From Dipteris shenzhenensis (lineage: Eukaryota): a stretch of 64,000 bases of DNA. The stretch lies in NCBI GenBank assembly GCA_047967505.1, contig CM106538.1. The stretch is one strand, 5' to 3'. Below, in pieces: positions 5,566 through 63,443 of this stretch. Within the stretch, counting starts at the first letter, position 1. Each line of letters begins with the position of its first letter. The position numbers and the translations under genes were made by a program. The notes under the pieces are model-generated. The model was not told where the DNA came from. It worked only from the letters and a program-made list of their open reading frames with translations, and did not search any database.

Positions 5566-5599
<34 letters not shown>

Positions 5600-5601
5600 A
5601 C

Positions 5602-10383: not shown

Positions 10384-10511
10384 AGGTATTACCTACCTTC
10401 TATGCAAAGCCTTGTGCTGTCACTCCCTAGAGCTCTGTTTGCAAGGAAGAGGCTGCAATACTCAATAGACCTGAGTGCTACAAAAAAAGCACAAGAGTCA
10501 AACGAGAAACC

Positions 10512-11234: not shown

Positions 11235-14200
11235 AAACCCCTCTTGGGGATGATGAGCCTTCTACCACTGTGGCTGCCTAGTCGGAAGAGCCACTTACTT
11301 CTGCTCATATCTAAGCATCCTCTAGAGACACAGGGATTATCCCAAGCTAGCTTCGTGCATGAAGGAACTCTACTACATGGTATAGCTCTACCTGGTCACA
11401 ATGACCCATTCACGATAATGCATAGACAACGCTCACCGTATGCATGTTTGTCGAACAACCTCATGAGAGATACAACATGTTGCTGAAGAGTTTTTGAGGA
11501 TCGCCAGTGGACATATGATTTTTTTATATCTCTTATGTGGTTGGCTTGATAGATTTTCATATGGTTTTCATGTATCTCTTGTTTGGGTGGCCAGTGAGGA
11601 GCTAGCCAAGGTCAAGTGGTAAGTCGACACCCCTCCCTACCACTGTAATGGTAGAACTACAAGCTTCCATAAAGGATTGTGACAACATATAGTTGCTAGT
11701 ACTACGCGAACTAGATGCAAAATGGCTATAGACTACGTAGAACATATAGCCTATGTTTGTATACACCTCATGGTGCTAGAAGTAATCAACGATTTGGTCT
11801 CATATTGGCACCAAAAAGTTGTCCTTCGCTTCTGCCCATCAGCTCCTAGAGTTGTGAAATAAGCAAGATGCAAAGTGGTTTGTTAGCTCAGTGCCCTAGT
11901 CATGGCATAGTGAGGTTTGCCACCACAACGGTCTACACACATGGAGCTCGGAGGGATGAAGTACCACCTTTGATATATTAGACATTCAGTTTGTGTATGA
12001 AGGCATTATACATTGCTATTACAAACATCAAGTCCCATAGAAGGTCTCGCGTATAGCTAGCTACCTTGTATGGCTCAGTAGTGACTAGAGATAGTATATC
12101 CTTTGAGGAGCGTTTCCCTTTAAAGTTTTTTTTGCAACGTTGCATCCACTGGTTGTAGCATGGAGTTCAGACACGATCCCATCGGTCTTTGGAGCTCTGA
12201 AAGTTCATTTTAAATAAAAACGGTGGTATTACGGGTTGCCTTGACCTGGAGGAGTGCATCTAGATGCACAAGGAATCTAGGGATACAAAGTGAAGACACT
12301 ATACTCATACTCTACAAACTATGGCTTGCGTATTGCTTACTATACCTCTGGATAGTATATATTGAGAGTAAAAATAGTTTCGTCCTCAGCAAACATATGC
12401 TATATAATATGCTCACGGCAAGTATACAATGAGTGGCATTTTGTTTTCTACAATAGCCTTAGAAGTTTGGCTTCTTGCCACTGTGTTTCTTCTATGGAAC
12501 CATGTAGAAAACTATTTGTGTGTAGAGAATCAATGGGTTGGAGACTTGACTACGTGTTAACACGATGATAGAGGTGAACAAATTGGAAATATTGCCGGCT
12601 AAGTGCAACCCTCCATTGGTTTTGTGCAGGTTTCGATTAAGGATTAGGTGGGAAATGGAATAATTTATTGTTATGGTGGAAGGACGAGTGACATCATATG
12701 CTTGGATGATTCTTAATAGAACAATGTTGGAGTACTATATAGTCGCTTGAACCCGGAGAGATGGCCTACATAGTTGATATGGTGTCACATAGAGGATAGA
12801 ATATTGAAATGGGAGAAAAAAACTAGAATATATAATGGGAGATTCATTGATAACTACAAACACTGGCAGTCCCTTGAAAACTTGGAAAGTTAGTAGGACC
12901 TTATGTAAATCTTCATTGCTGGCTAAGATGTGTAACAGATTATCATGGTGCTTAAAATAGTCTAAAGGACTTAATAAAAAATTCAATGAAAAGAATTACA
13001 TTTATTACACGGTTTTGTTTAACATTATATGACATAGCATATATGGGAACATTTTCACGACTATTTAGATTTGATTTACCCCCAAGAAGCTAAAATTTCA
13101 TAGGATTTTTCTGATGGATTGTGTGGATGGACATGGATAACAAATGTCTAGGGGTTTTGATGCCTACCTTCCCACTGAAATCTACCTAACATGGTTTTCT
13201 TTGGATGGTGGCAAGTGAGTCCCTGCACTTCTCTGCAAGATTCTATGAGGATAATTAGGATGGCTTGGGTGATGCAACAAAAACAACATTGGCATAGGTA
13301 GTTTTGCCACTGGGACAAGAGATGGAATTATAATATTGCCTTTGTCTTGGTGATAGACCTATAGTGGATTTTTTTATATTTTTGAATGTATAGAAAAAAA
13401 CATTTTTACCATTAGGAGGCCTATAAGTCTAGATATGATTTCATATAAATAGAATGATTACTGAGAAGCTTGAGACATGGGACCCATGCCTAATAGTTTT
13501 GATGCAAATATAGCAAAACTTTTGAATGACATGTGAAATTCTGCAGTTATATTGGCTATGCTAAGAAATCACCTGAGACAATGAGAAATTTGTTCAAACT
13601 TACCACCTATAGTAGGTCCATTGTCGCTAGATAATCTGGGATTAAAATGCTTTTCACTACCTGAAACAACTTCTAATGGGCTATATACTCAGACCAGCTT
13701 ATGACTACCACAATCACCCCCAAAAAGAACTCATCACATACCTACATAAACCCCTTTTTTCCACCTTGGTTATTGGAAGTAGAATTGATGGCATATGACA
13801 ACAAAAATTGGGAAATACATGACATGAACTTGTTGGCACCATTCTCCCTGGATACTTGGATGTTTCTAGCAGACTTGGTGGCAAATTAAAAACCCATCAA
13901 AGCAGAAGAAAAGAGAGCAACACATAATTTCCAAATCAGATTGGTACATAACTATCCATTGGCAAGTTTCTTTCCCATGTCAACATTTGCCATAGGGAGA
14001 TGTGCATCACCCGTTGGGGTCTTCAGGAGAAGCAAAATTAAAACATCAAAAATTGAGAGGAGGATGCCCAAATATTTAAATGGCATTTTCAATGTTGGAA
14101 GCCCTTACTTGAAATGTAGATGCGTGGAGGAATGCATTGATTGTAAAGCCCTGCCATTATGGTTTGACCATGCAATATGGTTCATTGCTTATAACCTCCC

Positions 14201-17010: not shown

Positions 17011-18138
17011 CCCTTGCCCTTGAAAAAAAGGGGGTGATAAAGCATGGGACTTGGCTCCTAGGTAATAGATATGGAGATCAAACCTTATAATAAGACATCT
17101 GATGTGATGTATATTGGGACAAGGATAATGCATAGCATCAAAAAGTATAGAATAGCCTGTGGGACCAAACGAAGATACTACAATGATTGCCTGAACTAGA
17201 AATAGCCAAGTATACTGTAATGACCAAGAAGGAGACCCCTTTAGTAGACGATGCTTACTAGAGAAGGAGAGTAGAAAAAAGGAGGTCTAATTAATAATGA
17301 AACCCCTATGGCTCTAGGGGAGTATATTAAGAACTACAAAGGAATCGTGAAAAAAATGGGAGTCGCGAGCTAGAGATCCCATTTGATTATAGGCACGCCC
17401 TGTTATTAATATTGCATCTGTCAATGGATTGACTAGAATACTTTTTAACTAAGTTAATTATACTAGGGAACCCATCGAAAATCCACCTTCGATCTATTTG
17501 AACCTTCCCAGGAAACCATGGAAAATCCACCTTCCTAGGAATCCATTGAAAAGCTACCTTCGACTTATTTGAACACTGGGATAGCCATACATGAACATAG
17601 AAAACCCTGGGATATAGGCTTTGGATATGGGGGAAATATGTGGACCTAGGGCTAAATGGGAAGTGGTGTGCAAGGGAATATAGTATTAATGATTTTGAAA
17701 AAGGAAAAATAGATGGAGAACGTTGGGAAAAATTGAAAATTATGGACAGCCAAGGGGATGAATATGGAGTACCCCTAGTATCCCTCTAGGTATTGACAGG
17801 CAATGTGTGGTTACAAGATGAACTAGTGGGGACCCCTTGGATACTACCGCCTTATTAGTGAAAAGCCCTCAAACTGGTGGGTAAAAAGGAGTATACTAGG
17901 ATTTGAAAGAATGAAAAGGGGTATGGCAAGATACCCATAGGAGAGGAATGCACCATTGGAGGAAGGACACATTATGAAGTAATGGGTGTACTAGCACGTG
18001 CACTAAAAGCAAAAGGTACGAGCTACTATGGCTAAGTCCTTGGTGCCAAAAAGGGTGTAAAGACTTGGTGTTATGAGCTCCATGCCTCGATGAGAGGAAG
18101 AGACTAGGTTCACTCAAGAACAAAACCTGAGAATCTTT
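17010..18138 (+). mobile_element. PLE copy 2, left part
   Basis: Colinear with 6885-6928 plus 8111-9193. Confidence 0.8.
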
Positions 18139-19317
18139 TGTTGTGGGTCTCGGTGGTGACTCAAGTGTCATGGGGATGTTGAAGATATGCCAATGGAGCC
18201 TCCACTCCTAGCTACTCCTTGTGGGACCAATGCAAGGCACGAGCTATCCGCAAGTGTCATGCAAGCAGCCTCCAAATTGTTGCAATGTGGTTCCATGCGA
18301 GAAGGAGGGAACAGAAAGAGGGGAGAGGAGAGGGAGAATGGAGGGAGAAGGAGAAAGGAAGAGGAGAAGGGAAGGAAGAGTGAAGGGGGATAGAGTGGCA
18401 ACCACAAGGGTACTACAATGGAAACAAAGAACACCCAAAACACTCTCTTGGAAGAGAAGAGGGAGCTTGTATTCAAACTTGTGCAAACAACAATGAAGAC
18501 CAAAGTCAACCATTTGGCCTTTTATACAAGTCACCTTTTGAGGGGAGGGTCAACCCTTTTCCTTTTTAGCACTCTCCCTCTCTTTACAATGAAAGGCTCT
18601 TAGGCCCATAGGGTGCCAAGGCATATTGCTATTCTTCCCATCTCTCCCTACTAGCAGAAATAGCGCTTGTGTTAACCATATTAGAGTGCTTAGGACAAGC
18701 TTGGCATTAGGAGGTGTTCCTAACCGGCTCCCAAATAGCGCTTGTGTTAGCCTCATGCCTCCTAGGCTTAGGTGATTTGGGGCTCAAACTCCCTGACTGC
18801 CCTCATGCCTTAAACCATTTGTGGTTCAAATCCCATGCCTGAGGCTCAAAACCTAGAGTGGCGAGGCTTAACTTCCGCAAGACACTCAATGGTAACCCTG
18901 CATGTTGCCTACAATCTTTTGCCTTAGGATATTTAGGGATCAAACTCCCCGAGTTTAAGTTATACTTCTTTCATGGCTATTTTCATTGGCATGGCTATTT
19001 TCATTGGTGTGGCTATTTCTGTGGATGTAGGCCTGAAATGTGCATGTTGCTTGCACTCTTTGGTCTTGGTGTTAGCTGGAACATACAACCTATGCATGGA
19101 ATCCTTGAATCCTTGGACTTTGGGGTGGACTTTGGATATTTGGGGATCAAACTCCCTAAGTTTGAGCTATACTCCTTCCATGTACACATTACTTGTAATC
19201 ACTAGCCTTGGGGTATTTGGGAGTCAAACTCCCTGAGCTTGTCCATTGCAATGGATCATGTGGCCTGATCACCTTTAATCCTGCATTCACAACAACTGTA
19301 CTCTGTGGATGTTAACA
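18139..19317 (-). repeat. 3' LTR of gypsy 1
   Basis: Homologous to 37348-38512; TG..CA ends. Confidence 0.93.
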
Positions 19318-24897: not shown

Positions 24898-27657
24898 ATG
24901 GCATCTGATGCTCTTTCATAGATTGTCACTGAAAAGCTTGTCAAGAACAACTTCCAAGCATGGACGTTTAGAATGACGAATTTCCTTAAGGGAAAAGGTT
25001 ATTTGCAGTTCATTACTGGAGCTGAACAAGAACCAGTTATTCCTAATGTTCTCAATCAACAGGAGTTGCAGGCATTTAAAGGCTGGCATGAGAGAGCCAG
25101 AAAAGTTATGTACTAGCTGTCTATCAGTATTTCAAATTCTATGATTGTGCATATTCAGGATGCAAGCACACCAAAGGAGGCGTGGGATACTTTGACAAAA
25201 ATATATAGCACAAATACGCAAGCCAGGAAAATGCAGCTCAAGTAGGAGTTGCATAATGTGCAGAGAGAAAATATGAGCATCAATGACTACCACATGAAGG
25301 TGAAGAAGATTGCAGATGCACTTGCTTCCATTGGGTCGCTAGTGGAAGATGATGATTTAGTTTCTGTGACCTTGAATGGTCTAGGAAAGGATTATACACA
25401 GTTTCGGACATCCATTGCCGTCCATGAGAATTTTCCTGATTTTGGGGAGTTGATTGCTCTTCTAATTTTTGAAGAGCAGAGAAATGGTGGTGCATCTTCT
25501 TCAGGAGGAACCTCAAAAGAAACTGTCTTCTACTCAAATGCTGGAAGAGGTAGAGGCAGAGGTAGAGCAAGCCAATCTGGAAACCGTGGCAGAAATCAGA
25601 ATATGCAGCAAATTCAAGAAAACCAGTTTTATGGAGGAGGACGTGGTAACCTTAGAGGCAGGGGGAGCCAAAGAGGTCATGGTGGATGGCAGAGAGGCCA
25701 AAATGCAAACAGCAATGCTGAATGCTACTACTATGGTAAAATGGGTCATATGGTTAAAGACTACTATAAAAAGTAGAATGACATCATGACTGGAAAATTG
25801 CAGCAAGGCAATTATGCATCCTCTAGTAGACAGGTGATGATAGAAATGAGCATCTGTTTATGGTGCAGCACATGACCAATTCTGTGACAAGTGCAGAAGA
25901 AAGCAATGATGTGTGGTATGTTGACTGAAGTGTGCGTCAAACCACATGACAGGTCATGCAAAATGGATACAGGATGCAAAGAAAATGGAAAGACTAGGAT
26001 TTGTGGAGATTGGTGATAATACTACACATCCTATTGTGCAGATTGGTAAAATTCCTTTGTCTATGTAGGATGGAAAAAAGAAATACCTGTCTAATGTATT
26101 TCATGTCGCGAATATCACCAAGAACCTGGTTTCTGTTGGTCAAATGGTTGAGCAATGCTTGCAGGTCAGATTTAATCCTTATGGATGCTTTGCTAAGGAT
26201 ATGAAAAATAAAGGTCGCTTGATAGCAAAAGGGAAGAAGAAGGGCAGGATGTTTACGTTGGATGCGGACATGCCTGAATTGAGTGCAGCAATGTTTGCAC
26301 ATGGGACCGGTGTAGTTGCAAATATTGATATTTGGCATAAACGCATTGGTCATGTTAATTTACAATGACTTAAATTAATGCAGGCCCAAAATATTGTTAC
26401 AGGATTGCCTAAGTTCAAGGTTGCAAAAATGAGGTATGTGAAGTCTGTCAATTTGGAAAATAGGCAAGGAGACCATTTCCTAGACATGTTGAAGAGAGTA
26501 AGAGGCCATTGGAATTAATCCACTCTGATGTGTGGACTACTAAAGTTGCATCTATTAGAGGCTATCATTTTTTTGTCACTTTTATTGATGACTATAGCAG
26601 AAAAGTTTGGGTGTATTTTATAAAAAAGAAAAGTGAAGTGTTTGGGCATTTCAAAGCTTTTAAAGCTATGGTTGAAAAAGAAACAGGCCTGCAAATAAAA
26701 TGCCTAAGGTCAAATGGAGGGGGAGAGTACCTCTCAAATGAGTTTGCAAGTTTCCTGCAAGAGCATGGCATAAAGCAACAATATTCATGCAGTCATACCC
26801 CACAGCAAAATGGACTTGTACAAAGGAAAAACAGGCATATTGGAGAGGTATCTCGTGCCATGCTCAACGAAAAAGACCTACCAGATTATTATTGGGCTGA
26901 AGCAGTTGCTACAGTAGTCTACATAATGAACATGACTCCCACTACAGCAATACATGGCATAACACTAGAGGAGACGTATACTGGTAGGAAATCGTATATT
27001 TCTCATTTAAAAGTTTTTGGTTGCATTGCCTATGTTCATGTGCCAGATGAGTAAGTTGGATCCAAAAGCTGAGAAGTACATCTTTATTGGTTATTCTCTA
27101 AAGCAGAAAGGGTATAGATGCTATAACCCTTCTACTCGTAAGTTTATAGTGAGCAGAGATGTTGTTTTTGATGAGATGAGTAGTTGGTATAAACCAGTAA
27201 ATGTGATTGATGATGTAGATGCAAAAAATGGTAATGCTACACAGAATTCATAGGAGCAATCACAAAATATTAGTGGACTTGTAATGTCCTCTAGTAGTGG
27301 TTCACATACTTTGCCATGGACAGGCAGATTGAGATCAAGAGAATCTCCTCAAAGCGATGCAGATAGTGGTATGCAAGTATCACAAAAGGAAAAAGAGAAA
27401 GTAGATTATCCCATGGTTGATGTGAATGCAGGTCTCTCTTCTGTGGATGGTGAATCCAGTGGCTTAGAATAGAGCCTTGATGATGAGTTGGGTATTCCTT
27501 CTGTTGTTACACCTGGAGTGAGGAAGACAAGGGATGTTTTGAGAGCACCTGGTAGTGAGCCTACTTTGTGCAAGTCTACCATAGTTAAGTATCCTGTGGA
27601 TAGGCTGAAATATGATGGATTTACAGCCATTCACTATGCCTATATGGTCAAAGTGAT
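24898..27657 (+). pseudogene. Copia B gag-PR-integrase, degenerate
   Basis: UBN2-type gag (MSINDYHMKVKKIADALASIG, LNGL), a decayed zinc knuckle, [35 protein letters not shown]. Confidence 0.9.
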
Positions 27658-27819
27658 ACAGCCATTCACTATGCCTATATGGTCAAAGTGATACAATATG
27701 ATGGACCTTAGGTGGGGTGCTAGTGGGGGCTAGGGCTTCTGGTCCATGCTGTTGTGTAGCTTCGTCATCGTGGATCGACGAGGTCAAAACTAGAGGGGGG
27801 CTTGGTCCACATAGCGGAA

Positions 27820-30800
27820 CTATTGCCGTTTGGCCACCATTGGTGAGCGAAGCAGTTTGGGCATGCCAATCAATTTGATAATTGATGGCATAGCACCAGT
27901 TCTTCCTAGTATAATATGTTCTTCGGTTGCTTTTGTGGGGAGAACATAAAATCGTATATCCACTGCTTGGCGAACAACCATTAGACTTAAATTTACAAAA
28001 CCCAAAGTTTGTAGGAGTTGGCCATTTATGGCTCTTATTGAAGCGACTATGAGGTTTAGGGGTACCTGTAGCTTTTCCCATACCTCTAGGGAGAGGAAGT
28101 TGTGGCTCACTCTTGGATCTATGAGTGCTTTGATGCACATGTGTGGGACATATAGTTGAATAAGCAACCTGGCTGGCTCTACCATTAGCTCCTCCATTAG
28201 TTGCTCTTGTTCAATCATTGCCTTAAGCAGTGCCATTTGCCTATGCTCTCGGAGCTTAGCATTATAAATTCTGGATTCCTTGATGGCCTGACATTTCATC
28301 CTGGCCACCTCGGCGTTGAGTTCTTTTCCTCTATGCACAGCTTGAAGGGTGGAGGGAGTGAGTGATCTGTAGTATCTTTTAAATTTGCTCCTGTTAAGGT
28401 AGCCATCCATTTTTATCCCATCAAGGGTGGCTATTTGGCACGACCCTTGGGGAGTGATCTCAACTACGTGATACAGACCCATTTCTTGGTACTTAATCTT
28501 GCATTTGGTATTACGGGTGCTATATAGGAGCGCCAAATCTCCTTCTACTAGGTCGTTGCTCTTGAGGTTGTGATCAAACCACCTTTTGCGTCGAGCCTTT
28601 TCTACCTTGAGAGAGAGGCTACACGCAACCGTGTCTCTTCTAACTTTTCAAGGTCGACTAGCCGTTCCACTAGCACATTTTCTATGAGTCTTTCCTTCAT
28701 GGCAAGATGGAGGCTAGGCACTACAAACTCCATTGGCATTATTGCCTCCACCCTGAAGGCTAACATGAAGGGGGTACAATGTGTGACCACTTTGTAGGAG
28801 GTTCTGTAGGCCCATAACGTTGCTATGAGCTTATGCTCCTAGTTGGTATGACTGGCTTCTACTGTACATGTGATGATTTTACATGTTTTGTCGGAGCTCT
28901 TGGCCAAGCCATTTGCCCTAGGGTAGTATGGCGTTGACTTCCTATGAATGATCATAAACTCACTAGTCATGATTGCTATTATTTCATTGAGGAATTGAGT
29001 TTCGACTAACTCCAATGGACATCCAAACCATGTAACAACTTGTTCATATAAGAATTTGGCAGTGGATCTTGCATCAGCCTTCACCGTGGCTCTTCCTTCT
29101 ACCCACTTGGTGAAGTAGTCGGTGGCCAAGATGATGTATTTGGCCCCAGTCCCCTTAGTTGTTGGGCTTATGGTACCAATGAAATCGATGCCTCATTTTT
29201 CAAAGGGTTGGTCGGCCAAGATTTCGGTCAGTGGCATCATGTCTGCGTTGTGTGGGATTAGGATATGTTGATAAGGGTTGCATCATTTGATGAATTTGGC
29301 CGTGTCTTCGAAGAGTGTCGGCCACCAAAGACTAGCTTGCAGCACTTTACGTGTTGTAACATTAGCGGCAAAATGACCTCTTGCGATTCTTGAGTGGGCT
29401 TCTACAAGCACATCGATGTGTTCGTGTTTGCACATGCATCTTCGCAATATTCCATCCTTGCCCATGTGGTATAGTTGGGCTGCTATCAGCAGCTGATATG
29501 GTGCTATGTCCTTAATGAGTTTGCAGGCTCTATCCTTCTTAAGGGCCTGGCCTAGGGGTAATCCATTGGCCAAGTAGTGGCCAATTTCGGTGGCCCATTT
29601 AGGAATGATGTCAAGGAAGAAGAGAGAAGTGTTAGGGAGATCATCTTCTACTCCCGGTGGAGCTTCACCATTCGGGATCCTCAATAGGTGGTTGGCCAGG
29701 ATGTGGGTTTTGCCTTTACGTACAATGACTGTGAAGTTGAATTCTAGCAGGATTAGCATCAACCTGGTGATGTGTCCCATCATGCAGGGTTTTTTGACCA
29801 AGTATAGCAATGCTTGATGGTCCACAAAGAAGACAAACTTGTTAGCTAACAAGTAGTGCTTGAACTTCTTGACTGCATAGACCATGGCGAGACCTTCCCT
29901 CTTAGTGGTAGTGTAGTTAACCTCGGCCTCATTTAGTTGCTGGCTCACAAAATATACCAGGTAATCTAAATTATGCTCCCCGGGTTGGGCTAACACACAT
30001 CTGATGGCAAAGTTAGAGGCATCAATATGGACATGGAATATTAAATTCCAGTCGAGTGACCTCAACACTGGTGCAGTGGCTAGAGCTAGTTTGAGGGTTT
30101 CAAAGGATGTTTGACATTCCTTGGCCCCACCCAAAGGATACTAGTAGCTTGTATAATGGGTGGGCTATGTTCGCATAGAGCACGATGAATCTCTAGTAAT
30201 AGCTCGTGTGGCCCGTAAATCTTTGTACTCCCTTGACATTGGTGGGGGGCGGTAACTCCAAGATGAGTTTGATTTTATTATGGTCCATAGAGATTCCATT
30301 TGGGGACACTATGTGGCCCAGGATGACACCATGTTTGACCCAAAAGTGGCACTTAAGGGGGTTGAGGGATATGCAGTATAAGTGGCACTTCTTGAGGATG
30401 AGCTTGAGATACTTTAGGTGGCCATCCCATTTTGAGTTTATGCAGATATCTTCCAAGAAGACTTCCACAAAGTCCCTCAGATATTCCTTGAATATCATAA
30501 TCATCATCCGTTGGAAGGTAGCAAGGGCATTGGTTAATCCGAATTTCATCACCCTAGTTGCATATACACCCCATTTGGTTGTGAAGGTGGTCTTATGTTG
30601 ATCTTGGGGTGCGATCGACACTTGTTTGTAACCTAAAAATCCATTTAGGAAGCTATACGCTTCCTTTCTGGGTACCCTCTCTAGAACATGTTCCATGAAT
30701 GGCAAGGGGTAGTGGTCACATCTCGTGGCAACATTAACCTTTTTCAAATCCACGCATACTCTAATTTTTCCATTTTTCTTTAGGACTATCATGATGGGTG

Positions 30801-32600
30801 ATACCCAGTCCATATGCTCAATCTCATAGATGAATCTAGCATCTATGAGTTTTTGGATTTCTTCCCTCACTATGAGCGCGCATTTAGGATTCATAGGGTA
30901 GGGGCATTGCTGTAGTGGCCTAGAATCATCTAGCATGGTGATTGTGTGCTGCACTACTATGACATGCACCCCTTTCATGTCAGTGTACTTCCAGGCCATG
31001 CAATCCTTGTATTTTTGTAGGAGAGCTATTAAGGCATTCTCCTCATTGGGGGTGAGGTCATCGGTGACAAATATTGGTTGTGGGTCCTGCCCTTCTAGGG
31101 GTAGGTTTACCTCTTTGATCGAGGCTGGCCCATCATACCCTTGAGAACAACCATCCTCCCAAGACCTTTTGGCCTGTTAGTATAAGATCTTATGTTCTTG
31201 AGTAGTATAGGCCTTGTAGTGGGCTGGTACCTATCATAGGTCCTCTTTATCCTCAATTTCTTTCACTTTTTTTGCCAGAGCAGTGGTCTTTTTGGCTTAG
31301 CCTTGCCTTTAGATATAGGGGATTTTGGTCTTGATTTCCCTTGTACTTATAGAGCTAATAGGGGTGGTTACCCTACTTACCCTATTTTCCTAGTTGGAGG
31401 AGAACTCGTGGTGAGCAGTCGTGGCACCTACGTAGGAAAGCCAGTGAAGATCTGATTTTACCCTCATGATTCCCTTGCTTACCTCTCATGGTTTGAGCAT
31501 GTTAAACATTCTTAGGGGAACCACTGAGGTCAAACCCTCAAGCTCTGGGGTGGTGATTTGAAACCCCACTCTTTTGGGGACATATACATTGGCTAAGATG
31601 CGCATCTAGTTCTGTGATAATTTTGGCTCGGGGAGAGGTGCATACCAGAAGTCATCAGACTCCTTCTCATCCTCTTCCTTGTCATAGGGTTGGAATAGCT
31701 TTATGGAGGCGGTTAGGGTGGTGGTGTCGAACTCTGCAGCAAAGAGGTGTCCTGACAATGGGTGGGCCTTGTAGGTGTGTAGGTCCACTCTCATGGTTTG
31801 CTCCTCGTGCTGCAAGTAGATGTTATCATTACGCCAGTCATGCACGAGTCTGGACATTCGCAAGGACCTACCTAAGATAGCTTCATATCCTAGATGTCGA
31901 GTGAAGTCCATGACCATGGACCTGACAGGGTACATGAACCCAAATACCTTAATATTTATGCGAATCAGCACTCCCAGGGGTTCAACAGTTCCCCCATTGG
32001 TTAACTTTACTACCAGATGGGTCTGCTCAAGTGCGGGTTTTCCCCATTTCTCCTAGCTTTCATTGGTGTAGACACTCACTCCTGCTCCCCCATCTAGGAT
32101 GGCTTCCACTTCTGGTTTTGATAGACTATGGGGATAGAGGCATTCGTGTCATCACCCTCGAAGTACTGGCCTAGCTTGTTGATGGGAACCTTAGGTAGGT
32201 TATGCCCCTTTTCTAATGTTGATTGGTTGGCAGGGGTTGGAGGTAAGAATGGTTTGTTCATCCAATTGGACAGATCACACCATAGGATGGGATTTCCTCT
32301 TAGCAGGGAAGTGATCGGCATTTTTACCTCTGTCAATAGGAAAGCAGCCAACCTGGTGCTATCATAGAGCTTCGGTGAAGCTTCTTACTCCATGGACAAC
32401 ATGTCCTCAAAGTCGTACATGTCTCCTTTCATGCAACACTAGGTCTTCTTGGAACATCAGATTCAAAGCTTCTGTCTGCTCAAAGATGAGGTGTTTCTCT
32501 TCCTCCACCCTTTTTGGCACCTTGGCGATTTTACCCCTCGGTGGCCCATCAGGTAGGCTGGATGAATAGTATCTGATCCCATAGTACTGGCCTTTAGTCA
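27820..32600 (-). pseudogene. Gypsy 1 pol (PR-RT-RNaseH-IN plus C-terminal second protease), degenerate
   Basis: PR ILDGGAGVS...EAILGR (31860-32110). RT WVSPIMIVLKKNGKIRVCVD and FGLTNA (30193-30999). RH DASNFAI (29283-30134). IN DYFTKWVE and YYPRANG (28839-29129). GPY/F-like module (28370-28536). Confidence 0.93.
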
Positions 32601-32912
32601 ATGCTCAAACTTATCTTGGTAATCCTGTACCAAGTTCTAGATCCTTTATGTATTGCTTTTCTAAGACCGGGGTTCGGATAGGTCTCCTTATAGGTGGGTG
32701 AGGGTGCCAAGCCTTGGGCTTGCACTGGTTTGTTCACCTCTGGGACTAGAAATACCTTAGGGTCACCTTGGGTGGAAGACTATTCGGAAGCAAAGGAGGT
32801 GGCACGAATAGCTGTCTCCTCATCATAACCATTTTGGATGAGCACCTAGCCGGAGCTGTTACCTACTCAAATGGCCTTCTTGGATTGGGTTAGAGGATGT
32901 GGGGGAATCTTG

Positions 32913-34639
32913 GGGCTTCTTCAACCAAAAAACTTTGCTAGAAGTGCTTTGCTGTGCATACAATGTCACTAATCTCTGCCATGCATCCCATGCAGTGTTC
33001 TCATTCCGAATGCTCATAACAATGTCATCACAACATGTCAACATAATAGTGGCTTTAGCAAGTGTGTTTAGCCTCCACCATTCAGCATCTGTCATAGACA
33101 TAGGCTTCCTGCCTTGCTCTTGAATGGGAACATATTGCTCCTTGAGATACAGTATGTTCATGCATTGTGTCTGCCACACATCAAAGTTGCTAGTTCCCTC
33201 TAGCTTTTTAATGTTCATCATAGATGACGAATCTGCCATAATGTCCAAGCCACAACAACAAGACAATAATGATGCTCAAACACTTAGCTCCTTGCAAGCA
33301 CTCAATGCCACCAAAGAGTGAAATGCACTACAAGTGCACAGCCTGTATAGCAAGTGCCCGCACTTAAACCAGTGCCAAAACCTTCAGCAACAAGTGCAAA
33401 ATCCTTGCATACAATTGCATTGACCCAACATGGCATATGACATCCAAACTGTAGCATTTACCAATTGCAACTGTTGCCCAAAAATTCATTGCATATGGCA
33501 TCCAAAATGCCTTAAAAAAACTTGCTCAAGTTTGCACTTTACATTGTGTCAAATTTGTGTCCTGCACCAAACCTCACCACCACTCTACCAAATGGCAAGC
33601 TCTACCACCACATCCGGTGGGCCATGCCAAGAAGAAAATATTGCAACAAATGCAAAAAACAAAATAAGGTAGAGACAAGTGCAAGAAATAGCCTCTTACT
33701 TGGTCCTTCACCGAATTGTGAAAAAAATGCCAAATGACATGCTAAAAGAGCGCTATATCTCACAAAGTAGTGGTCAAATGGCAAAGCGATGGTGATTGTC
33801 ACACAAAATGTCTGCAAATTTTATGAGCAGGTTTCGCCAGTGAATATCTCCCAAACGGAATGTCGGATGGCTTTACTGCAGAAGGCAAACTTGTAGAAAA
33901 TCCAAAAATCTTCAAGTCTTGTGTTGACCATGAGTCTAAATTACTGACAGAAAAAAGAGATATTAAATGTCAAAAATTGTTGTCCAGTAAAAGATGATTG
34001 TCTGAGAATTTTGAAACAGCGATTTGGGGCTGTAAACGATCGAATTCGGAAAAAAAATAGTAGACCCAAGTCCAAAGGACCTGAAATTGCTCAGAGCGTC
34101 AAGATTGAGTAAAATAGAGTATTTGTTTGCAAAATTTCGACGTCATGACCAAAAACTGCCTGTAGAAGGAAATTTCGACGTCGACCAAAAACTGCCTCTG
34201 GAAGGGAGGACAAGCCAGAGATTCGTCTCTCTTATCCTCAACCACGACCAAGGTTCTCCCTCAGCACACCAGAGATTTCTTTTCCACAGCTGCAAGTAGC
34301 TCAAGGGTCTCTCACTCTTCACCTCTCTCTCAAACTCTCCAGGAAATAGAACTCCTTACTCCACCGAGTGGCTCTGGTCTACCACCAAGCTACTCAAGGT
34401 CATCGGGCTATCACCAAGCTTCCCAGAGCTCTGATACCAGTTTAAAGGGGATCAGGGACAGCAAAGGGCAACAAGAAGGAGAGGAGAACACACAATGTGG
34501 GGGTGTCAAGAGACACCAAAGAATAGGTATGCATAGTATATATAGTGGAAGCATAGTATACTATGTACATGGGACTGGTCACATGGCCTTTACCCCATAC
34601 TATGTACATGGGACTAACCACATGGCCTTTACCCCAACA
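32913..34639 (-). mobile_element. Ty1/copia element C fragment (LTR about 34442-34639, PBS, leader, gag N-terminus), nested in gypsy 1 gag
   Basis: Exact PBS TGGTATCAGAGC (34428-34439, minus). LTR starts TGTTGGGG and has a ~43-bp internal duplication. Gag start KKLEGTSNFDVW...TAWDAWQRL. Confidence 0.87.
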
Positions 34640-36001
34640 AAGGAAGCAAGGTAACAGTCGTTTGTCGCTCATCCACTCATATGGCTCACAATGGGCATTG
34701 AGATGCTTGATCCTAGCAATGTAATCCCTCAAGGATTCCTTGTCATTTTGTTTTACCCCATACAATTGGTTGATCGGGCTCCATTTATGGCTGTTGGGGG
34801 AGAACCCCACAATAAAAGCCTTTCTCAATGTCTCCCAATTGATCTTTTCTTTTGGGATGAGAGCCATATACCATTGGCCTACCTTGCCATCCAGGTTGAG
34901 GCCAAATGCATTGGCCATCTCTAGGACTCCGAGAGCACCAAAGTCTTCACAAATTTGTTCAAACTACTCATGTGGGAGATTGGGTCTCCTTCTTCTAGGA
35001 ACTTGGTCATTAGCTTGGAAATGGCTATGGGATGGCTCTTCGAGGGATTCATAATTCCTGTAGGAAACACTGGGGTGGGTGGAGGTGGTGTTTCCCCCCT
35101 TCCTAGGGCGTTCACCAAAATACAGATTGCCTCATCAGTCAACACCATTTGAGCGGCTAGCAGAGGTGGTGTTGCTGTGGGCCTAATGAGATGTAGCACT
35201 GGCCTTAGGCTTGGCCCAAGTGGTGGTCCCCACATAGTTGCTAGTACTGGCATTGGAATGGAGGTACCAAGGCCTGCATTCATTGGTGCAACTGGTTTAG
35301 ATGGGAAGGGACGAACCCTCAGAGGCGGTGGGTCTTGGGGCATGGTAACGTTGGTTCCATGTAGCGGTGGATGGTAGGGTGGAAACTATGGTGCCCCATA
35401 GTTGACGAAGGCTAGTGGCGTCGGGGCTATTAGAGGTTCATAAGGCACTCCACCTTGGAAGTTCCTAGTATCCCCTCAGCTTGGGTCTTGCCTTCGAAAT
35501 TCCCTCATCCATGGATGTTCATCATCCATGTTTTCCCACTAGGGAGGTTCGGCATAGGCAGAGGGTCCTAGATCGACGAAGTTGGTTTCCATCCCGATCT
35601 GTGGTTCGGGAGCTGGCTATTGCTGGCATTCTCTCCTTGCGGACATGATAGCAAAGGGGTTCTCCATGTCTGCTGACTCTATTCAGCCTAAACGGATGAA
35701 CATGTCGGAGAACGTGCCCCTAAGCCTAGATGCAACCGAAGGTGCAGGAGAGTTGGGAGAGGCCACAATGTGAATGGAGCTTCTGATGCCCTTGAACCCG
35801 AGGGGTCTTGCATTACTTCTTCCAGACTCTCGTTTTGTTAGAACTAGATAAAGTTTCTAGTTGGGGACCTACTAACGAGTGGAGGCTCGGGATCGAGCTT
35901 TTAGATTCCCAGCTAGGATAGAGGGTGGGATGAGCATAGCTCGAAGCGCTTTCTTCCGGCACGGTATCCTTTGGCAAAATCCTTCCGAACGTCAAGTGCA
36001 T
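34640..36001 (-). pseudogene. Gypsy 1 gag (retrotrans_gag), degenerate
   Basis: FGLNLDGKVGQWY...WETLRKAF...KQNDKESLRDYIARIK. Homologous to 57081-57979. Confidence 0.87.
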
Positions 36002-37347: not shown

Positions 37348-38512
37348 TTTTGTGGGTCTCAGAAGTGACTCACATGTCATGGGGATGTTGAAGATATGCT
37401 AATGGAGCCTCCACTCCTAGCTACTCCTTGTGGGAGCAATGCAAGGCACGAGCCATCTGCAAGTGTCATGCAAGTGGCCTTGGGATTGTTGCAATCTGGT
37501 TCCATGTGAGAAACAGGGAAGGGGAAGAGGGGAGAGGAGAGGAAGAAGGGAGGGAGAAGGAGAAGGGAAGAGGAGAAGGGAAGGGAGGAGTGAAGGGGGA
37601 TAGAGTGGCAACCACAAGGGCACTACAATGGAAACAATAGAACACCCAAAACACTCTCTTGGAAGAGAAGAGGGAGCTTGTATTCAAACTTGTGCAAACA
37701 AAAATGAAGACCACAGTCAACCATTTGGCCTTTTATACAAGTCACATTTTGAGGGGAGGGAAAACCCTTTTCCTTTTCAGCACTCTCCCTCTCTTTACAA
37801 CCAAAGGCTCTTGGGCTGGTAGGGTGCCAAGGCATATTGCTATTCTTTCCATCTCTCTTTACTAGCAGAAATAGTGCTTGTGTTAGCCATATTAGAGTTC
37901 TTGGGACAAGCTTGGCGTTAGGAGGTGTTCCTAATCAGCTCCCAAATAGCGCTTGTGTTAGCCTCATGCCTCCTAGGCTTAGGTGATTTGGGGCTCGAAC
38001 TCCCTGAGCACCCTCACGCCTTAAACCATTTGTGGTTCAAATTCCATGCTTGAGGCTCAAAACCTAGAGTGGTGAGGCTTCCACAAGACACTCAAAGGTA
38101 ACCTTGCACATTGCCTACAATCTTTTGCCTCGGGATATTTGGGATCAAAATCCCTCAGTTTGAGTTGTACTCCTTTTGTGGCTATTTTCATTGGTGTGGC
38201 TATTTTCATGGATATAGACCTAAAATGTACACATTGCCTGCACTCTTTGGTCTTGATGTTAGCTGGAACATACAACTTGTGCCTAGAATCCTTGAATCCT
38301 TAGACTTTTGGGTGGACTTTGGATATTTGGAGATCAAATTCTGTGAGTTTGAGCTATACTCCTTTCATGTACACATTGCTTATAATCATTGGAGTTGGGG
38401 TATTTGGGGGTCAAACACCCTGAGCTTGTTTGTTGCAGTAGATCATGCGGCCTGATCACCTTTAATCACTGATTACCTTGCATTCAACTGCTGTACTCTA
38501 TGGATGTTAACA
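37348..38512 (-). repeat. 5' LTR of gypsy 1
   Basis: Homologous to 18139-19317; adjacent to the PBS. Confidence 0.93.
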
Positions 38513-39823
38513 ACTTTGGATGCCTCAAAATACATGGGAGCCTTGAAGGAACAAAACTTGGGTGCAAAAATCGATGGAGATAATTACAACAACAGTCAAG
38601 TAGAGCCACTGAAATTGGGTGGCTAGACTAACAACCTTGAGGTGAGAATCCCTGACAAGGGGCAAACCATTAAACCAATGGGGAGAACCGCTCATGCCTC
38701 CCTCCCTTGGTGATATGGACAATACCCAGGTATTACCTACCTTTTATGCAAAGCCTTGCACTGAGTCGCTCCCCAAAGCCACATTTGCAAGGAAGAGGCC
38801 ACAATACTCAGTAGACCTGAGTGCTACAAAAAAATCATGAGGAAGGGTCAAACGAGAAACCCATCTCCTGGGGACGACAAGCCTTCTACCATTGTGGCCT
38901 CCGACTGGGAAGAGCCACTTACTTTTGCTCATACTTGAGTGTCCTTTAGAGACACATGGATTCTCCCAAGCCAGTTTCGTGTGTGAAGGAGCTCTACTAC
39001 ATGGTATAGCTCTAGTTGGTCACAATGACCCATTCACGATAATGCGTAGACAAGGCTCACCAAATGCGTGTTTGTTGCACAACCTCACGAATGGGTTGCT
39101 AAAGAGTTTTTGAGGATCGCTTGGTTGCCAGTGGACGTATGATTTTTGTATATCTCTTGTGTGGTTGGCTTGATAGATTTTCGTATGGTTTTCATGTATC
39201 TCTTGTTTGGGTGGCCAGTGAGGAGCCAACCAAGGTCGGGTGGTAAGTCAACACCCCTCCCCGCCACTGGGATGGCAGAGCTACAAGCGTCCATAATGGA
39301 TTGTGACAACATATAGTCACTAGTATTACATGAACTAGATGCAAAATCATTACAGACTATGTAGAACATATAGCTTGTGTTTGTATACACCTCATGGTGC
39401 TCTATGGTACCACAGTAAAAACTATTAGTGTGCAGAGAATCAATGGTTTGGAGCCTTGACTATGTGTTAACACAATGATATACGTGAACAAACTGGAAAT
39501 GTTGCTGGCTAAGTGCGATCCTCCATTAGTTTTGTGCGGGTTTCGATTATGGGTTAGGTGGGAAATGGAATAGTTTATTGTTATGGTGGAGGGACAAGTG
39601 ACATTATATGCTTGGTTGATTCTTAATAGAACAATGTTGGATTGCTATATAGTTGCTTGCCCTAAGAAATGGCCTTTATAGTTGATATGGTGTGACTTTG
39701 AGGATAGAACTTTGAAATGGGAGAAAAAAACAAGAATATATAATGGGAGATTCATTGATAACTACAAACACTAGCAGTCCCTTGAAAACTTAGAAAGTTA
39801 GTAGGACCTTATGTAAATCTTCA
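38513..39823 (+). mobile_element. PLE copy 2, right part (3'-truncated; lacks about 11777-12490 of copy 1)
   Basis: Colinear with 9189-9419, 10402-10511, 11240-11776 and 12491-12915. Confidence 0.8.
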
Positions 39824-44439: not shown

Positions 44440-46200
44440 CTTTCATCCTACGTTCGAGCATCAAAACATCATTCCTTACCATCTAGTATTGTTGCTATTG
44501 TGGGGAGCCCACATGAACATACAACACGTGATGAACTCTCTGATATCAGACTAACTTCTCAAATATGCAATGAAGGCAGAGCCCATGGAAAAATTAAACA
44601 TTCGACCAGAGGATGCAGCAAGATTGGAGTTCCAGAATCTCGACACTTTAAAATTGAAACTCATGGCAACAACTCTCCTATCAGAACAAGTGTCACCGAC
44701 AGAAGTTGTGCTCAAATGCTTGCAGATCCTAGTAATCACAAGGAGCGAGTGTGTTACTATGTTGACTCATCTCCTCCTACATTGCGTTAACAAATGATCT
44801 CAAGAAACCACAACGTCGTCATCCATCTGGTCGGTTGCTATTGTGGAAGGCCTATATGCCTTGAGGATACCACATTCTATGAGTATCACAGAACATACGT
44901 CACCCATAAGGCAAAACAAAACATCCATAACAAAAATCAAGAACGATGTTTTCGCGGTAATCATGTGGTGAAGAACAGCAGGGTCATTAGATTCATGGAA
45001 TACCACCCTGGTCATCAGCCCAAAGGGTTCTTATATAATGTGCTTTTGCAGAGAATGAGCTTCCAAAAGGAGGGCGATCTTATATTGATAAACAACACTA
45101 CAAAGCCATACTTTGTAAAATGCCAGATACATGGCCTTGTGTTGAATAACGATGACCTCGAAATGTATGTCACAGAGTACACACAATGAAACCTGCTTAC
45201 AACTAATCATATAGACCAACTCATCAATATGATTTTACATAAATTCACATTCTTTTGACACAATCCATTGGAGACACCAGTTGTTGATGACCAATGACTT
45301 TTTGAGAGTCGGACAAGACTAAAAATGCTACAAATCTTGCACGAGTTTAAGACGATCACCAATGCAACACTTATTATCAAGCAAGATTCGATCTGTAGGA
45401 AACTCGTAGCATCAAAGGTAGGATTTCACATCATCACTGGAACTCTAGGAATCGGAAAGACCTTTCTCATAAAGTACTACATCTTGTATCTAATCTCACA
45501 AAACAAGATAGTCCTATTGATCGTGTCAACTGGAGTAGCCGCGACATGATTGCATTATCAATGAAGAAGAAGCTCTTTGATTAGCTCTTTGATTCATCGA
45601 TAGAAGAACCACCATTATATGCACGCACAGAGTGGACATGCACACATACAACAAGCTATTGATTGAAAATTTTCATTTGCTAGAGTCAGTTGTTCATATA
45701 CCTCTTCACACGAACATGGCCGATGAACCAACAATTCATGAATGGATTAACAATGGCACTTTCAATGAGATAAAAAAAATTAGCATCGGATCAAGGGTGA
45801 TGATGATAGAAAACATTGACTTCACCATTGGTGCAGCAAACGGAGCAACATGTGAGATCCATGAACTTAGTACATCTGGAATGGGCAACAAAATTGGGAT
45901 TACTGTCATCATCGATCCAACTAGAGGAAAATTACGATATGCCATCCCAAACATCAGAGAAAGGCGGTCAATGGCAAATGGTACCACAAATCGACATTTT
46001 CTTTGGTACTCACATATGCAATAATGGGTCATAAATCACAAGGTGCAACAATCTCAAACAAAGTGTTGCTCATTTTTAGTGAAAGCATTTACACCCAGCC
46101 TTGGATACGTGATGCTATGTCGTGGAACCGAGAGATCAAAGCTACGAATCCTTGGACTTCCAGATCCAGACTTCTTCACCTCGATGTCGCTAGATATTCT
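44440..46200 (+). pseudogene. Helitron Rep-helicase (Helitron2/Helentron-like), degenerate and internally deleted
   Basis: Rep catalytic region PYHLVLLLLWGAHMNIQHV...*LLKYAMKAEP (44474-44585). YCGRP..LE motif. PIF1 motifs ITGTLGIGKT, VSTGVAA, GSRVMMIENID...NG and LTYAIMGHKSQGATI. Confidence 0.87.
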
Positions 46201-48084: not shown

Positions 48085-48216
48085 CTTTCTCTCTCTCTTC
48101 CTTCTTCTCTCTCTTTCTCTTGCTATTTGCATCCTATCTTTTTCTCTCCCCCCCACCTCCCCCTCCCCCCCCCCTCTCTCTCTCTCTCCTCTCTCTCTCT
48201 CCCTCTCTGCCTCCCT

Positions 48217-48277
<61 letters not shown>

Positions 48278-48290
48278 TCCTTCTTCTTTT

Positions 48291-48338
<48 letters not shown>
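48085..48338. repeat. (CT)n / pyrimidine-rich microsatellite
   Basis: Directly visible. Confidence 0.96.
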
Positions 48339-48342
<4 letters not shown>

Positions 48343-60000: not shown

Positions 60001-60534
60001 GGCAAATAGTGACACCCCAACCCAAAAATCCTGATAATGTTGAATCTCCCAATCATGCTCAAGACCTTGCAAGGGTGCCAGTCAACGAATTAGGCCAATA
60101 TTTTGAGAATGATGACATGAATGCAGTGTTACCCATATTCTTTCTTGATAAGAAAACTATGGCAATCTTAGACAGAGGAGTAGGTGTTAGCATTATCTTG
60201 GAAGAATACTGGGAAAAGTGGGGAAGTCCCAACCGAGAAAGTACTTCCTTGGAAGTTGGTAGTTAAATTAGCTGATGGAGGCACGACTCATCCCATAGGA
60301 GTACTCAAGGACATTAAAATCAAAACCTTTGGTCTCACATATCGGGTGTGCCTTGTTGTAATGGATTTCCAAAACAACCCTAGGTATGAGGCTATTCTAG
60401 GGAGACCTTTCTTGCGTATGGTAGGATTGATCCATGATTGGCGCTCCAACAACATTAATCTAAGGAAAGATCAGCAAGTTAGATCTTCAAACATGGAAGG
60501 CTCACAGTATGTCCAAAAATCTATTTGTAGCTGA
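57081..60534 (+). pseudogene. Gypsy 2 gag and aspartic protease, degenerate
   Basis: MILRSGR start; FSLSLDGKDGQWF; zinc knuckle CGVCTGNHPTKEC; PR AILDRGVGVSII...VKLADG...EAILGRPFL. Confidence 0.88.
59367..59678. mobile_element. ~310 bp insertion in the gypsy 2 gag-PR linker, solo-LTR-like
   Basis: Imperfect inverted ends GTTAGGTGAATATA / TATAATTCATCCTAAACA, TATA-like and CT-rich interior. It interrupts the coding-like sequence. No clean TSD found. Confidence 0.45.
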
Positions 60535-63443
60535 ATCAGATACCACCAATAGGTCTGTGTCGGTAAAGTTGGTTTAAAAAATATGAGAAAGAAGAGTCTT
60601 GATAAACCTTGGTGTGATCCTTTACCAAAACTAGAATAATCACTTGATTGGATGCATACACTGGCGACAATAGATCTACCAACTACTGAGGGCACTCAGA
60701 CGATGTACCTTGATGACGGACAACTTAACTCCATTACAACTTTTTACACCATAAGAGCAGTACTACCTAATCAAGGAATTGAAAGTTCCCTTGATCCTGA
60801 CAAGATAGATATGACTCCATCTCAACTTTGGGTAGAGCTGACATCAATAGGTGTAACATACTAAATACAAACCATGGTAGATGGGCGAGCAGGCCACAAC
60901 CTCATCTCCTGGAGACATTAAAGCATCTTGGCCAGGTACGCCTTCAAGTATGTGATTTTGAAATTCAATCCATAGGGGGTACCTCTATTAAGGTTATTGG
61001 TTCTTTAATGTTGAATGTCTCCTTGGACAATTAAGCAACCAAGCAAATATGGGTCCAAAAGAATCCATTGAAGGCTCAAGGATACTTTGAGGGTGAATCA
61101 TATTTTTGGATTCCAAAGAAACCTCAACATATAAATCCACCCCCTCCTCTAAACATCAAGCCTCACCATCACCAGCCACCTCATCATGTAAACAACAAAC
61201 CTCAACATCAAAGAAGAAGATGATGCCATCCAACAAGGAAGGTACATTACCAATGGGTTCCCACAAGACTACTACTCGAGGCCCAGGGATATTACTTTGG
61301 CAACTCTTATATATGGGTACCCAAGCCTTGCTAGAGAAATCAACAACCCATTCATGCTTGCCCCAAGCCTAAATGCACACCAGCACCATCACAAAATCAG
61401 GAGCAAAGCCCCAAATCTAGCAATACAAAAGCATCAATGAGTGTAGATGCACCATTAGTAGTCACATAAGAACCTGATCTACAAAGATGCCATGAGCAGT
61501 GAGAACCTGCTTGCAAGGATAAGGGAAAAGCACCAATGTAGGAGGACCATATGTAAAGGAATTCATCTACCTCCTCTCGAGTAGTTACACGAGAAACTAT
61601 CTCAAAAAGGGAGATAGTAACACAAGAACCTACTCGATTGCAAGTCTACCAGAAGGGATGTCAATTTATTGCATCATCTTCAAGGCAACTAGTAGAAACA
61701 TAAGAACGTGTCTTGAAAAAAGAGACGGTAACACAAGAACCTACCAAGAGAAATGTTGAATCCATGTTGGGAGCCTCACAAGAACTTCTTATTGAGAAAT
61801 TTGGCATCTATCATTAGGGTTGCTATGCAAGAATCGACCACACAAGTAATGCCCATCACAACGAAAGTCCCACAAGAACCTTCCAATGTGAACAATGAAT
61901 TATCTTCATCCCTGACAACTTTCACATTGGGCTCAACAAAAGCAAAAGATCTCAGAGACATTGCAATCCTACTCACATTTGATACATAGAACACATATCA
62001 CTTTATTACGATGAGTATCATAGAAGTGGTACATGTGGGAGACTGCAATGCTCAATGATGCAACACTGACAATAAGAAACATGCCAAAAACAATAGATTC
62101 ACAAGAACTTGCTCCTAAAAATGGAGTAGCTCCACAAGAACCTACTGCTATAATCAAGGATCTCGAAGGACTTCAAGCAACGTTGCTGTCAATGGGATGA
62201 CAACTGCTTACCAAGAAAGATCTTCAGTGATGTCTTAGTGACTCTCCTTCCAAGTGATTATTAGACTTACATCAGGTTCCAAATAGCTATACAAGTCATA
62301 TTTCTCTGTTGGTCTACAAAATGATGTTCTTGCTAGGTCTGGGTCACAATTGGTAAATATGTCACATGTGGAAGTCCTAGGTGAAAATAGGCAGTCAATC
62401 CTCTTCAGATTCTCAACATGGCACACTCAAAAAATCATGAGTACATTAGCCCAATGGATCCTTGGTCGGGAAGATAAGCTACAAAAACTATGGAAAGTCA
62501 ATACACCAATCAGCATTAATAACACACCCCTTTAACAGAGCCAAAATAGAACACGGCATTCACTTATTCTTGAATTTGAGTTCACACATGGAATGGCAAG
62601 TGGTTCTACACAAGCAGCTCTTGAGGATGCATTTAACTCCGGGGTGAAGGTGATTACATAAATATGGTTTTGGATGAGTTTCTTGTGACTCTCAAAGTAG
62701 TTTTTTTCACATTCCTTTACTAACATCACCATTAACTATCTAACTTCTACTCATCCTCTTTTCTTTATTTTTCTTTTGTTTCAGTTCTAGCTTAGAAGCC
62801 TTTCCTAGAATCCCCCTTCTATAACCCTCTTCAACCATAGTCCTCATTTTAGGGATTTGTATGGTGTATTCTCAGACTCCTCGCAATTTAATGACTTAGA
62901 CAAATAAAGCTCTAGATGGTGCCACAACCTTATTGGACTCAAATACTTCCAAGCAAAGCCTTGAATGAAATGGATTTTAAAGAAACTTCGATATTGAGAA
63001 GCAAGACAAGATGTCATGCACAACTCCATACGTTCAAATGTGGCATGACAAAGACATAGTCTGATGACAATCCATTAGAAGTCCAACTCAAATCAAATAT
63101 GGGACTTAAGATGAGCATGAGAATGCACTTTACTTACTCTGCTAACACTAACACCACTAGGATATACATTCCCTACTAAGACCTTCTTCCTAATAACTTA
63201 CCCCTTAGATTTTTCTTTTCCTTTTTCTATTCCTTCTTTCACTCAAACCCTAAAGTGCTAGACGAATCACTCATCCATACTTCTAGCAAGCATTCCATCA
63301 CAAGGAGCCACTATATCCCTCTGCTACAACATACTGAAAGAAAATTCATCCTAGTACACACAAAAGACTACTTCTCATTATCTTCATTGACAACACTTCA
63401 ACAACTAGGAACGTTACACGATCTAGAGGACTGGATTGAAATT

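Follow-up and report, generated by a model that had tools for sequence, protein, structure and literature searches.

A retropepsin-like domain behind integrase is probably an inherited second protease domain in a fern Ty3/gypsy retrotransposon lineage

Long terminal repeat (LTR) retrotransposons and retroviruses are taught as carrying one protease per polyprotein, upstream of the reverse transcriptase (RT). A stretch of 64,000 nucleotides from Dipteris shenzhenensis (contig CM106538.1 of assembly GCA_047967505.1, hereafter the window) raises the question whether some of them carry two, since a retropepsin-like sequence had been predicted there in frame behind integrase, in an element whose usual protease had also been placed upstream of RT. 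We call this element B, its upstream protease PR1 and the domain behind integrase PR2. The analysis described below leads us to assign a probability of about 0.78 to the reading that PR2 is a genuine extra retropepsin domain, inherited as part of the polyprotein Pol by a Ty3/gypsy lineage whose domain order is gag, PR1, RT, RNase H, integrase, long charged helix, PR2 and a basic tail with W-x-P-K repeats. The lineage with the two retropepsin domains is probably fern-associated.

The fusion is visible on the minus strand in a stop-to-stop open reading frame (ORF) of 275 codons, ORF A (28647-27820), within which the shorter ORF of the original prediction (27820-28536) sits. Its translation runs from MGLYHVVEITPQGSCQIATLDG, a GPY/F-type integrase tail, through a part rich in K, E, A and R into KALIDPRVSHNFLS...IRAINGQ...HIILGR, and a few codons later it reaches the stop at 27820, so the order of integrase tail, linker and IRAINGQ...HIILGR in one ORF is as had been described. 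The domain continues as NWCYAINYQIDWHAQTASLTNGG in a different frame, that of ORF 28210-27683, where the shifted WCYAINYQIDW is indeed present; the frameshift is of the -1/+2 type and lies at about 27895-27901. A hidden Markov model (HMM) of PR2 only, made from 32 relatives with the window row excluded and used to search the window in 2668 six-frame segments, matched ORF A at E=4.6e-25 (profile positions 4-103) and, at E=5.4e-4, the continuation past the shift (102-128), the two pieces jointly accounting for 125 of the 129 profile positions (4-128). What had been called a full retropepsin-like pattern holds in the profile match and in the ILG..W motif (HIILGR, then NWCYAINYQIDW past the frameshift) and fails at the active-site triplet, which in the translation of ORF A is D-P-R, not D-[ST]-G. 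With this triplet, the frameshift, a truncation and stops or frameshifts throughout pol, the window copy is a dead pseudogene.

The same join recurs in other proteins. A search of 1.84 billion representative proteins with ORF A gave 85 matches at E<=1e-3, 19 of them at <=1e-10. Rather than ending after integrase, 12 of the 85 aligned in a single stretch from the integrase tail through the linker past the PR2 active site (start at query residue <=95, end at >=186) with 23-52% identity, the other matches being short fragments of either part. A profile search of a 5.8-billion collection returned 40 matches at E<=1e-5, and 13 of these covered at least 60% of the query with tail, linker and PR2. 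One relative, P0093, is a hypothetical protein of the fern Ceratopteris richardii that bears the UniRef name 'Peptidase A2 domain-containing protein'; P0002, P0004, P0021 and P0108 additionally contain the rve integrase core, and in P0002, P0088, P0089 and P0090 integrase and PR2 are in frame with no stop or start between them. The closest intact relative, P0087, shares 45% identity with the window across 250 aligned positions, and its residues 1-242 align by tblastn across the join to 28611-27898 without a break. Among seven sequences covering all regions, mean pairwise identity was 0.50 in the integrase tail, 0.12 in the spacer and 0.30 in PR2. Because diverged relatives have the same join and the PR2 HMM matches, the integrase-PR2 fusion is best taken as an inherited feature of the family and not as a local accident.

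Profile and fold searches alike matched retropepsins. Against solved structures, the family profile matched ASPRV1 over the whole domain (E=6.5e-7; profile 188-288, chain residues 15-117), followed by DDI2 (0.01), DDI1 (0.017) and, weakly, the Rous sarcoma virus protease (0.19). Pfam retropepsin families were found in 7 of 13 relatives in one scan and in 11 of 11 in another, with P0023, P0089, P0090 and P0102 above the curated cut-offs. The fold was examined in models of the relatives P0087 and P0089, not of the broken window copy. The AlphaFold model of P0087 has a mean predicted local distance difference test (pLDDT) value of 81.6 and shows an SH3-like beta module (strands at 26-79), a 40-residue helix (86-125, pLDDT about 92), a disordered spacer and a beta-rich domain, PR2, whose 10-residue blocks reach 85-97; the model of P0089, a D-T-G member, shows the helix at 161-201 and PR2 blocks of 90-97. 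Foldseek aligned PR2 of P0087 with the retropepsin domains of DDI1 and DDI2 (E about 2e-6, target template modelling (TM) score up to 0.77) and the P0089 model with the DDI1 RVP domain (target TM up to 0.86); the matches of the two models include the proteases of human immunodeficiency virus 1 (HIV-1) and xenotropic murine leukaemia virus-related virus (XMRV), both also found with P0087 PR2, and that of equine infectious anaemia virus. In the ESM Atlas the nearest clusters to P0087 were retroviral aspartyl-protease ones, with a score of 0.75 that is a lead at most. By profile and predicted fold, PR2 is a retropepsin domain (peptidase A2-type, clan AA).

PR2 belongs to the same element as the other pol domains. 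Element B is bounded by direct LTRs of about 1.17 kb that are 87.7% identical in a self-comparison of the window and have termini of the TG...CA type (TGTTAACA...CCCACA). It lies in a long LTR of an older element, and the other LTR copy of that element (8102-9193 and 9190-9417) preserves the empty site, aligning to both flanks of element B with a 4-base overlap; the flanks read CAAAG and CAAAA. Everything between the two LTRs is a single insertion, and therefore PR1, RT, RNase H, integrase and PR2 are all parts of one Ty3/gypsy element. Gag, protease, RT, RNase H and integrase follow each other collinearly between the LTR pair, from 35385 down to 28363 of the minus strand, and by this domain order, the LTRs and the target-site duplication element B is a Ty3/gypsy LTR retrotransposon. 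Its integrase core matches relatives by tblastn (P0004, 52% over 222 aa; P0108, 44% over 351 aa). As possible traces of a polypurine tract and a primer binding site, a purine-rich run, GGAAAGGGGG, stands directly before the 3' LTR and a stretch starting with TGG lies a few bases past the 5' LTR. The element is an old one and no longer intact, stops or frameshifts separating almost all domains. A copia-type gag fragment (32862-33275, minus strand; Retrotran_gag_2, E=4.3e-9) lies between its gag and PR1 and is probably nested.

The active site was compared across the family in 33 aligned sequences covering it. The catalytic Asp of PR2 is nearly invariant. D-[ST]-G followed by Ala occurs in 16 of the sequences and D-x-G with Pro, Leu, Arg or Phe in 11; five have lost the Gly (D-P-R twice, the window included, D-S-R twice and D-P-S), one reads ESP, and the third-position Gly is thus retained in 27. 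The canonical triplet is intact in part of the family and missing from the window copy and its clade. That clade was seen in a FastTree phylogeny with a midpoint root and uninspected support values, built from 27 of the 38 rows, the other 11 being dropped because they covered fewer than 75 PR2 residues. Its triplets are D-P-G in four members, D-L-G in two and others once each, whereas 12 of the 16 tree sequences outside it have D-[ST]-G. The ILG-x-W motif is retained throughout the relatives, as ILGRTW, ILGQSW or LLGLPW.

Beyond PR2, the frame of the relatives runs on for 100-330 residues rich in Ser, Thr, Pro, Gln and Lys, as a tail in frame with Pol. W-[IVLM]-P-K motifs recur in it, and it has a conserved LLQAQGYYQG...W-[LV]-P-K block. 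The repeat motif occurs in 10 of the 125 collected proteins, up to six times per protein, and Pfam gave no family for the tail in the 11 relatives scanned. Most of the tail is modelled with low confidence in P0089, with a short ordered element at the LLQAQGYYQG block. We saw the basic tail with W-[IVLM]-P-K in P0088, P0089, P0090, P0095, P0119, P0122 and P0124, as well as in a second copy in the window, element C, which holds both of the W[IVLM]PK sites that a six-frame translation of the window contains. Element B breaks off at 27.69 kb, about 40 codons before it would reach this motif: some 130 bases beyond PR2 it meets, with no LTR between, an oppositely oriented, truncated copia element (24922-27695, plus), which has gag, pre-integrase, integrase core and SH3-like domain and stops inside the integrase-RT linker. 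The join looks like a deletion junction at which the 3' half of copia and the part of element B after PR2 were lost.

The upstream protease had been predicted at about 31860-32110, and we located PR1 at 32136-31750 on the minus strand. In element B it reads ...AILDGGAGVS..., then an in-frame TAG, then EAILGRSLRMSRLVHDW. Compared with the PR2 family profile by hhalign, PR1 gave E=1.1e-4 and 19% identity over 98 columns, and the PR2-only HMM matched it at E=2.8e-4. We regard it as the ordinary protease of the element because it lies between gag and RT, shows the pattern D-x-G-A...ILGR...W and is conserved in element C. Its sites are atypical in both elements, D-G-G in B and D-R-G in C, with no Ser or Thr after the Asp. 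Two other origins of PR2 were considered and rejected, a recent duplication of PR1 in view of the 19% identity, and a piece of an endogenous pararetrovirus, as PR2 is followed by the tail and not by RT.

Element C (55695-64000, plus strand; LTR copies 55695-56194 and 63457-63948) is diverged from element B, being 63% identical in the gag protein and 74% identical in the DNA of the 5' region. The PR2-only HMM matched it at 60801-61031 (E=7.4e-4, profile 39-77) and, collinearly, at 60865-60918 (E=0.43, profile 24-38). What remains of it is gag, PR1, some of PR2 and the tail; RT, RNase H and integrase are absent, and it resembles a non-autonomous copy with an internal deletion. Two diverged copies in the window, B and C, thus each hold PR1 and PR2. 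The features of both elements are collected in Table 1.

Table 1 Features of elements B and C in the window.
Feature	Position	Strand	Basis
5' LTR of element B	37350..38512	-	87.7% identical over 1187 columns to 18141-19317
gag of element B, two overlapping frames	34445..35385	-	Pfam Retrotrans_gag PF03732 E=1.8e-11 on 34445-34963
PR1, D-G-G site, in-frame TAG	31750..32136	-	Translations; hhalign and PR2-only HMM; weak Pfam
Reverse transcriptase	30193..31176	-	Pfam RVT_1 E=1.1e-14
RNase H and integrase zinc-binding domain	29283..30140	-	RT_RNaseH_2 4.2e-28, RT_RNaseH 3.2e-26, Integrase_H2C2 4.5e-4
Integrase catalytic core and following region, two frames	28602..29192	-	Pfam rve weak 0.066; tblastn of rve-carrying relatives
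Integrase C-terminal GPY/F (SH3-like) module	28363..28611	-	ORF A residues 13-95; aligns with relatives
Charged helical linker and short acidic spacer	28186..28362	-	One long helix in relatives' models, then low-confidence spacer
PR2, retropepsin-like domain behind integrase	27821..28185	-	HMM, family profile, relatives' fold matches; D-P-R; frameshift about 27895-27901
Post-PR2 tail remnant, ends before W-x-P-K repeats	27707..27820	-	tblastn, P0091 residues 156-222 = 27904-27707
35-bp tandem duplication, 2.1 copies, B/copia junction	27622..27695	.	No LTR here
3' LTR of element B	18141..19317	-	Self-comparison; empty site seen in surrounding element's other LTR copy
PR1 of element C, D-R-G, frameshifted	60162..60630	+	tblastn of B PR1: 56% over 32 aa, 38% over 137 aa, E=3.8e-24
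PR2 remnant in element C, frameshifted, D-G-R, lacks C-terminal third	60865..61028	+	PR2-only HMM
W-x-P-K repeat tail of element C	61035..61331	+	Family HMM E=7.7e-7 and 1.2e-5

Several observations weigh against the reading of PR2 as an inherited second protease. Pfam gave no family at E<=1 for ORF A or its shifted continuation, and 6 of the 13 relatives in one scan had no Pfam retropepsin match; three of these hold only the first PR2 residues, P0017 holds part of the domain, and P0045 and P0069 hold most of it. PR1 is itself only weakly recognisable, with an hhalign probability of 56% against PR2, Pfam matches below the cut-off (Asp_protease 0.021, Asp_protease_2 0.059) and chance-level matches, none of them a protease, among solved structures. 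No full-length Pol protein with both proteases was found with ORF A (proteins of 483-2000 aa) or with the alignment (1179-3365 aa), both weak negatives, proteins of 700-1179 aa lying outside the profile search, and the co-occurrence of PR1 and PR2 thus rests on two decayed copies in one window. The relatives are predicted proteins, many from contigs shorter than 3 kb, and P0093 alone has a species name. As for activity, the window copy is uninformative, since it is without D-[ST]-G and is broken by a frameshift and a truncation, and D-[ST]-G is found in none of the 11 members of its clade.

In another explanation, PR2 is, by analogy with DDI1, a catalytically silent pseudo-protease that pairs or scaffolds two integrase C-termini or W-x-P-K tails, at least in the clade of the window copy. 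The retropepsin domain of DDI1 is a dimer platform. All 11 clade members lack Ser or Thr after the Asp, and P0087 and P0091 nevertheless keep long open frames and a well-conserved domain; moreover, the best fold matches are DDI1 and DDI2 and not viral proteases, and a long helix precedes PR2. On the other hand, the near-invariant Asp, the Gly kept in 27 of 33 sequences and the D-[ST]-G with Ala in 16 of them speak for a working site. PR1 of elements B and C is also without Ser or Thr, which implies that the second triplet position is possibly tolerant in this lineage; proteases of the Athila/Tat group often read D-L-G. We consider a silent PR2 unlikely, and put the odds that PR2 of intact members is catalytically active at roughly even.

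That a gag-protease piece of another element landed by chance in frame behind integrase is hardly credible. The window is made up, mosaic-like, of nested and deleted elements and has a deletion junction about 130 bases downstream of PR2, and tblastn of both ORFs across the window gave only self-matches (next match E=0.39) and no second full copy, as a chance fusion would have it. However, the join and linker recur in relatives down to 23% identity and in the named fern protein, the alignments cross the join without a break, the relatives continue after PR2 into the tail and not into RT, and their divergence argues against a single rearranged progenitor no older than the insertion. It also seems very improbable that PR2 and the tail are in effect a separate product of foreign origin, a captured host or viral retropepsin-like gene that acts, for example, on a host factor. 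PR2 is no closer to its own PR1 (19%) than to generic retropepsins, its best matches are ASPRV1 and DDI1, and the tail belongs to no known family, all of which would suit a capture; yet PR2 is always in frame with integrase in the four relatives named above, and no relative with PR2 and tail only and a start of its own was identified in the protein searches, which could not show gene structure or genomes.

The surroundings of element B are themselves rich in mobile-element remains. A very long repeat pair (8102-12915 versus 17037-18138 plus 38514-39823, 81-90% identity, gapped) appears to represent the two LTRs of the older, larger element, one of them split by the insertion of element B. Between the 3' LTR of B and the copia fragment, the segment 19318-24900 has about 47-49% G+C and a strong skew of G over C, and it contains several minus-strand frames of 100-170 codons with no Pfam match and no family-profile match. 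Two further copia pol regions (RVT_2, rve, SH3_retrovirus), a CACTA-type Transposase_21 fragment and a weak Pif1-helicase-like match were seen at 3-1714 (minus), 48672-50877 (minus), 53557-53826 (minus) and 45593-46021 (plus). Low-complexity short repeats at 5597-5651 and 48203-48342 match each other in inverted orientation. A scan of 27-29 kb for bacterial-type promoters and terminators gave nothing above shuffled sequences and is irrelevant to a eukaryotic element.

How might a Pol with an inherited second protease domain work? Retropepsins are obligate homodimers in which each subunit contributes one Asp, and they mature polyproteins by self-cleavage. In members with D-[ST]-G-A and ILG-x-W, PR2 would likewise pair as a homodimer, possibly aided by the long helix ahead of it, and could cut near its own borders at the C-terminus of Pol, so that integrase would be freed from the PR2-tail part or the tail would be released, while PR1 would handle the usual gag-pol processing. 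In the clade of the window copy, with D-P-G or D-L-G, the activity of PR2 may be lower or lost and a pairing role kept. A more specific version, which we offer tentatively and think rather improbable as a whole, is a fern lineage in which two retropepsins divide the labour, an atypical D-x-G PR1 and an ancestrally canonical D-[ST]-G PR2; PR2 would dimerise via or with the helix and control the release of a basic W-x-P-K repeat tail by which integrase would be guided to, for example, a chromatin target. Alternatively, PR1 and PR2 might form a heterodimer, a split form of the two-lobed pepsin design.

Known elements offer parallels to the layout. Chromoviruses also have an extra folded domain in frame at the C-terminus of integrase after the GPY/F module, throughout the lineage; here, unlike there, a retropepsin takes the place of the chromodomain, and a basic repeat tail follows. 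No chromodomain family was found in the Pfam scans of window ORFs or relatives, and element B is not a chromovirus. Some Tat elements carry a 'post-integrase' extra RNase H (aRNH) (PMC13468544, PMC6317226), likewise a second copy of a Pol enzymatic domain type downstream of integrase, whereas the doubled domain here is the protease. Element B is not a Tat element, as Pfam found no extra RNase H in it and the native RNase H families only once, at 29283-30140. PR2 shares profile, predicted fold, D-x-G-A and ILG-x-W with ordinary Ty3/gypsy and retroviral proteases (A2) and differs from them in its place at the far C-terminal end of Pol, in being the second copy per polyprotein and in the D-P-G or D-L-G of the window clade. 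DDI1, DDI2 and ASPRV1 (SASPase) are the best fold and profile matches among solved structures, but they are encoded by the host and joined to ubiquitin-like or other partner domains, whereas PR2 stands in a mobile-element polyprotein and is 10-19% identical to them.

With Athila, element B shares long LTRs (about 1.17 kb), a long internal region, the lack of an extra RNase H and its standing as a Ty3/gypsy element outside the chromoviruses. As possible differences, the Pfam scans showed no separate env-like ORF and no Athila ORF-1 family (PF03078), the region after PR2 being deleted in element B. PMC6317226 defines the Athila lineage by the phylogeny of RT, RNase H and integrase. The placement of element B in Athila, as the original prediction had it, is a tentative label. 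That prediction had also suggested that the two-protease architecture might be new. In our text searches of the literature, a protease behind integrase is nowhere described, the supplementary domain tables of PMC6317226, which could bear on the claim, being outside their scope; going by text searches alone, a second retropepsin behind integrase may be undescribed. The same plant reference survey removed elements with multiple copies of one domain type as likely mispredictions (PMC6317226), and two-protease lineages would then be filtered from reference sets, which could explain their absence.

A second retropepsin kept behind integrase over deep divergence, down to 23% identity, would be a new domain in this position beside the chromodomain and the extra RNase H. 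The Ceratopteris 'Peptidase A2 domain-containing protein' and fern 'genes' annotated like it are probably fragments of such elements. The finding raises the questions of how a polyprotein with two dimer-forming proteases would mature, whether a retropepsin may act as a pairing or release module for integrase, and what role the W-x-P-K tail would play.

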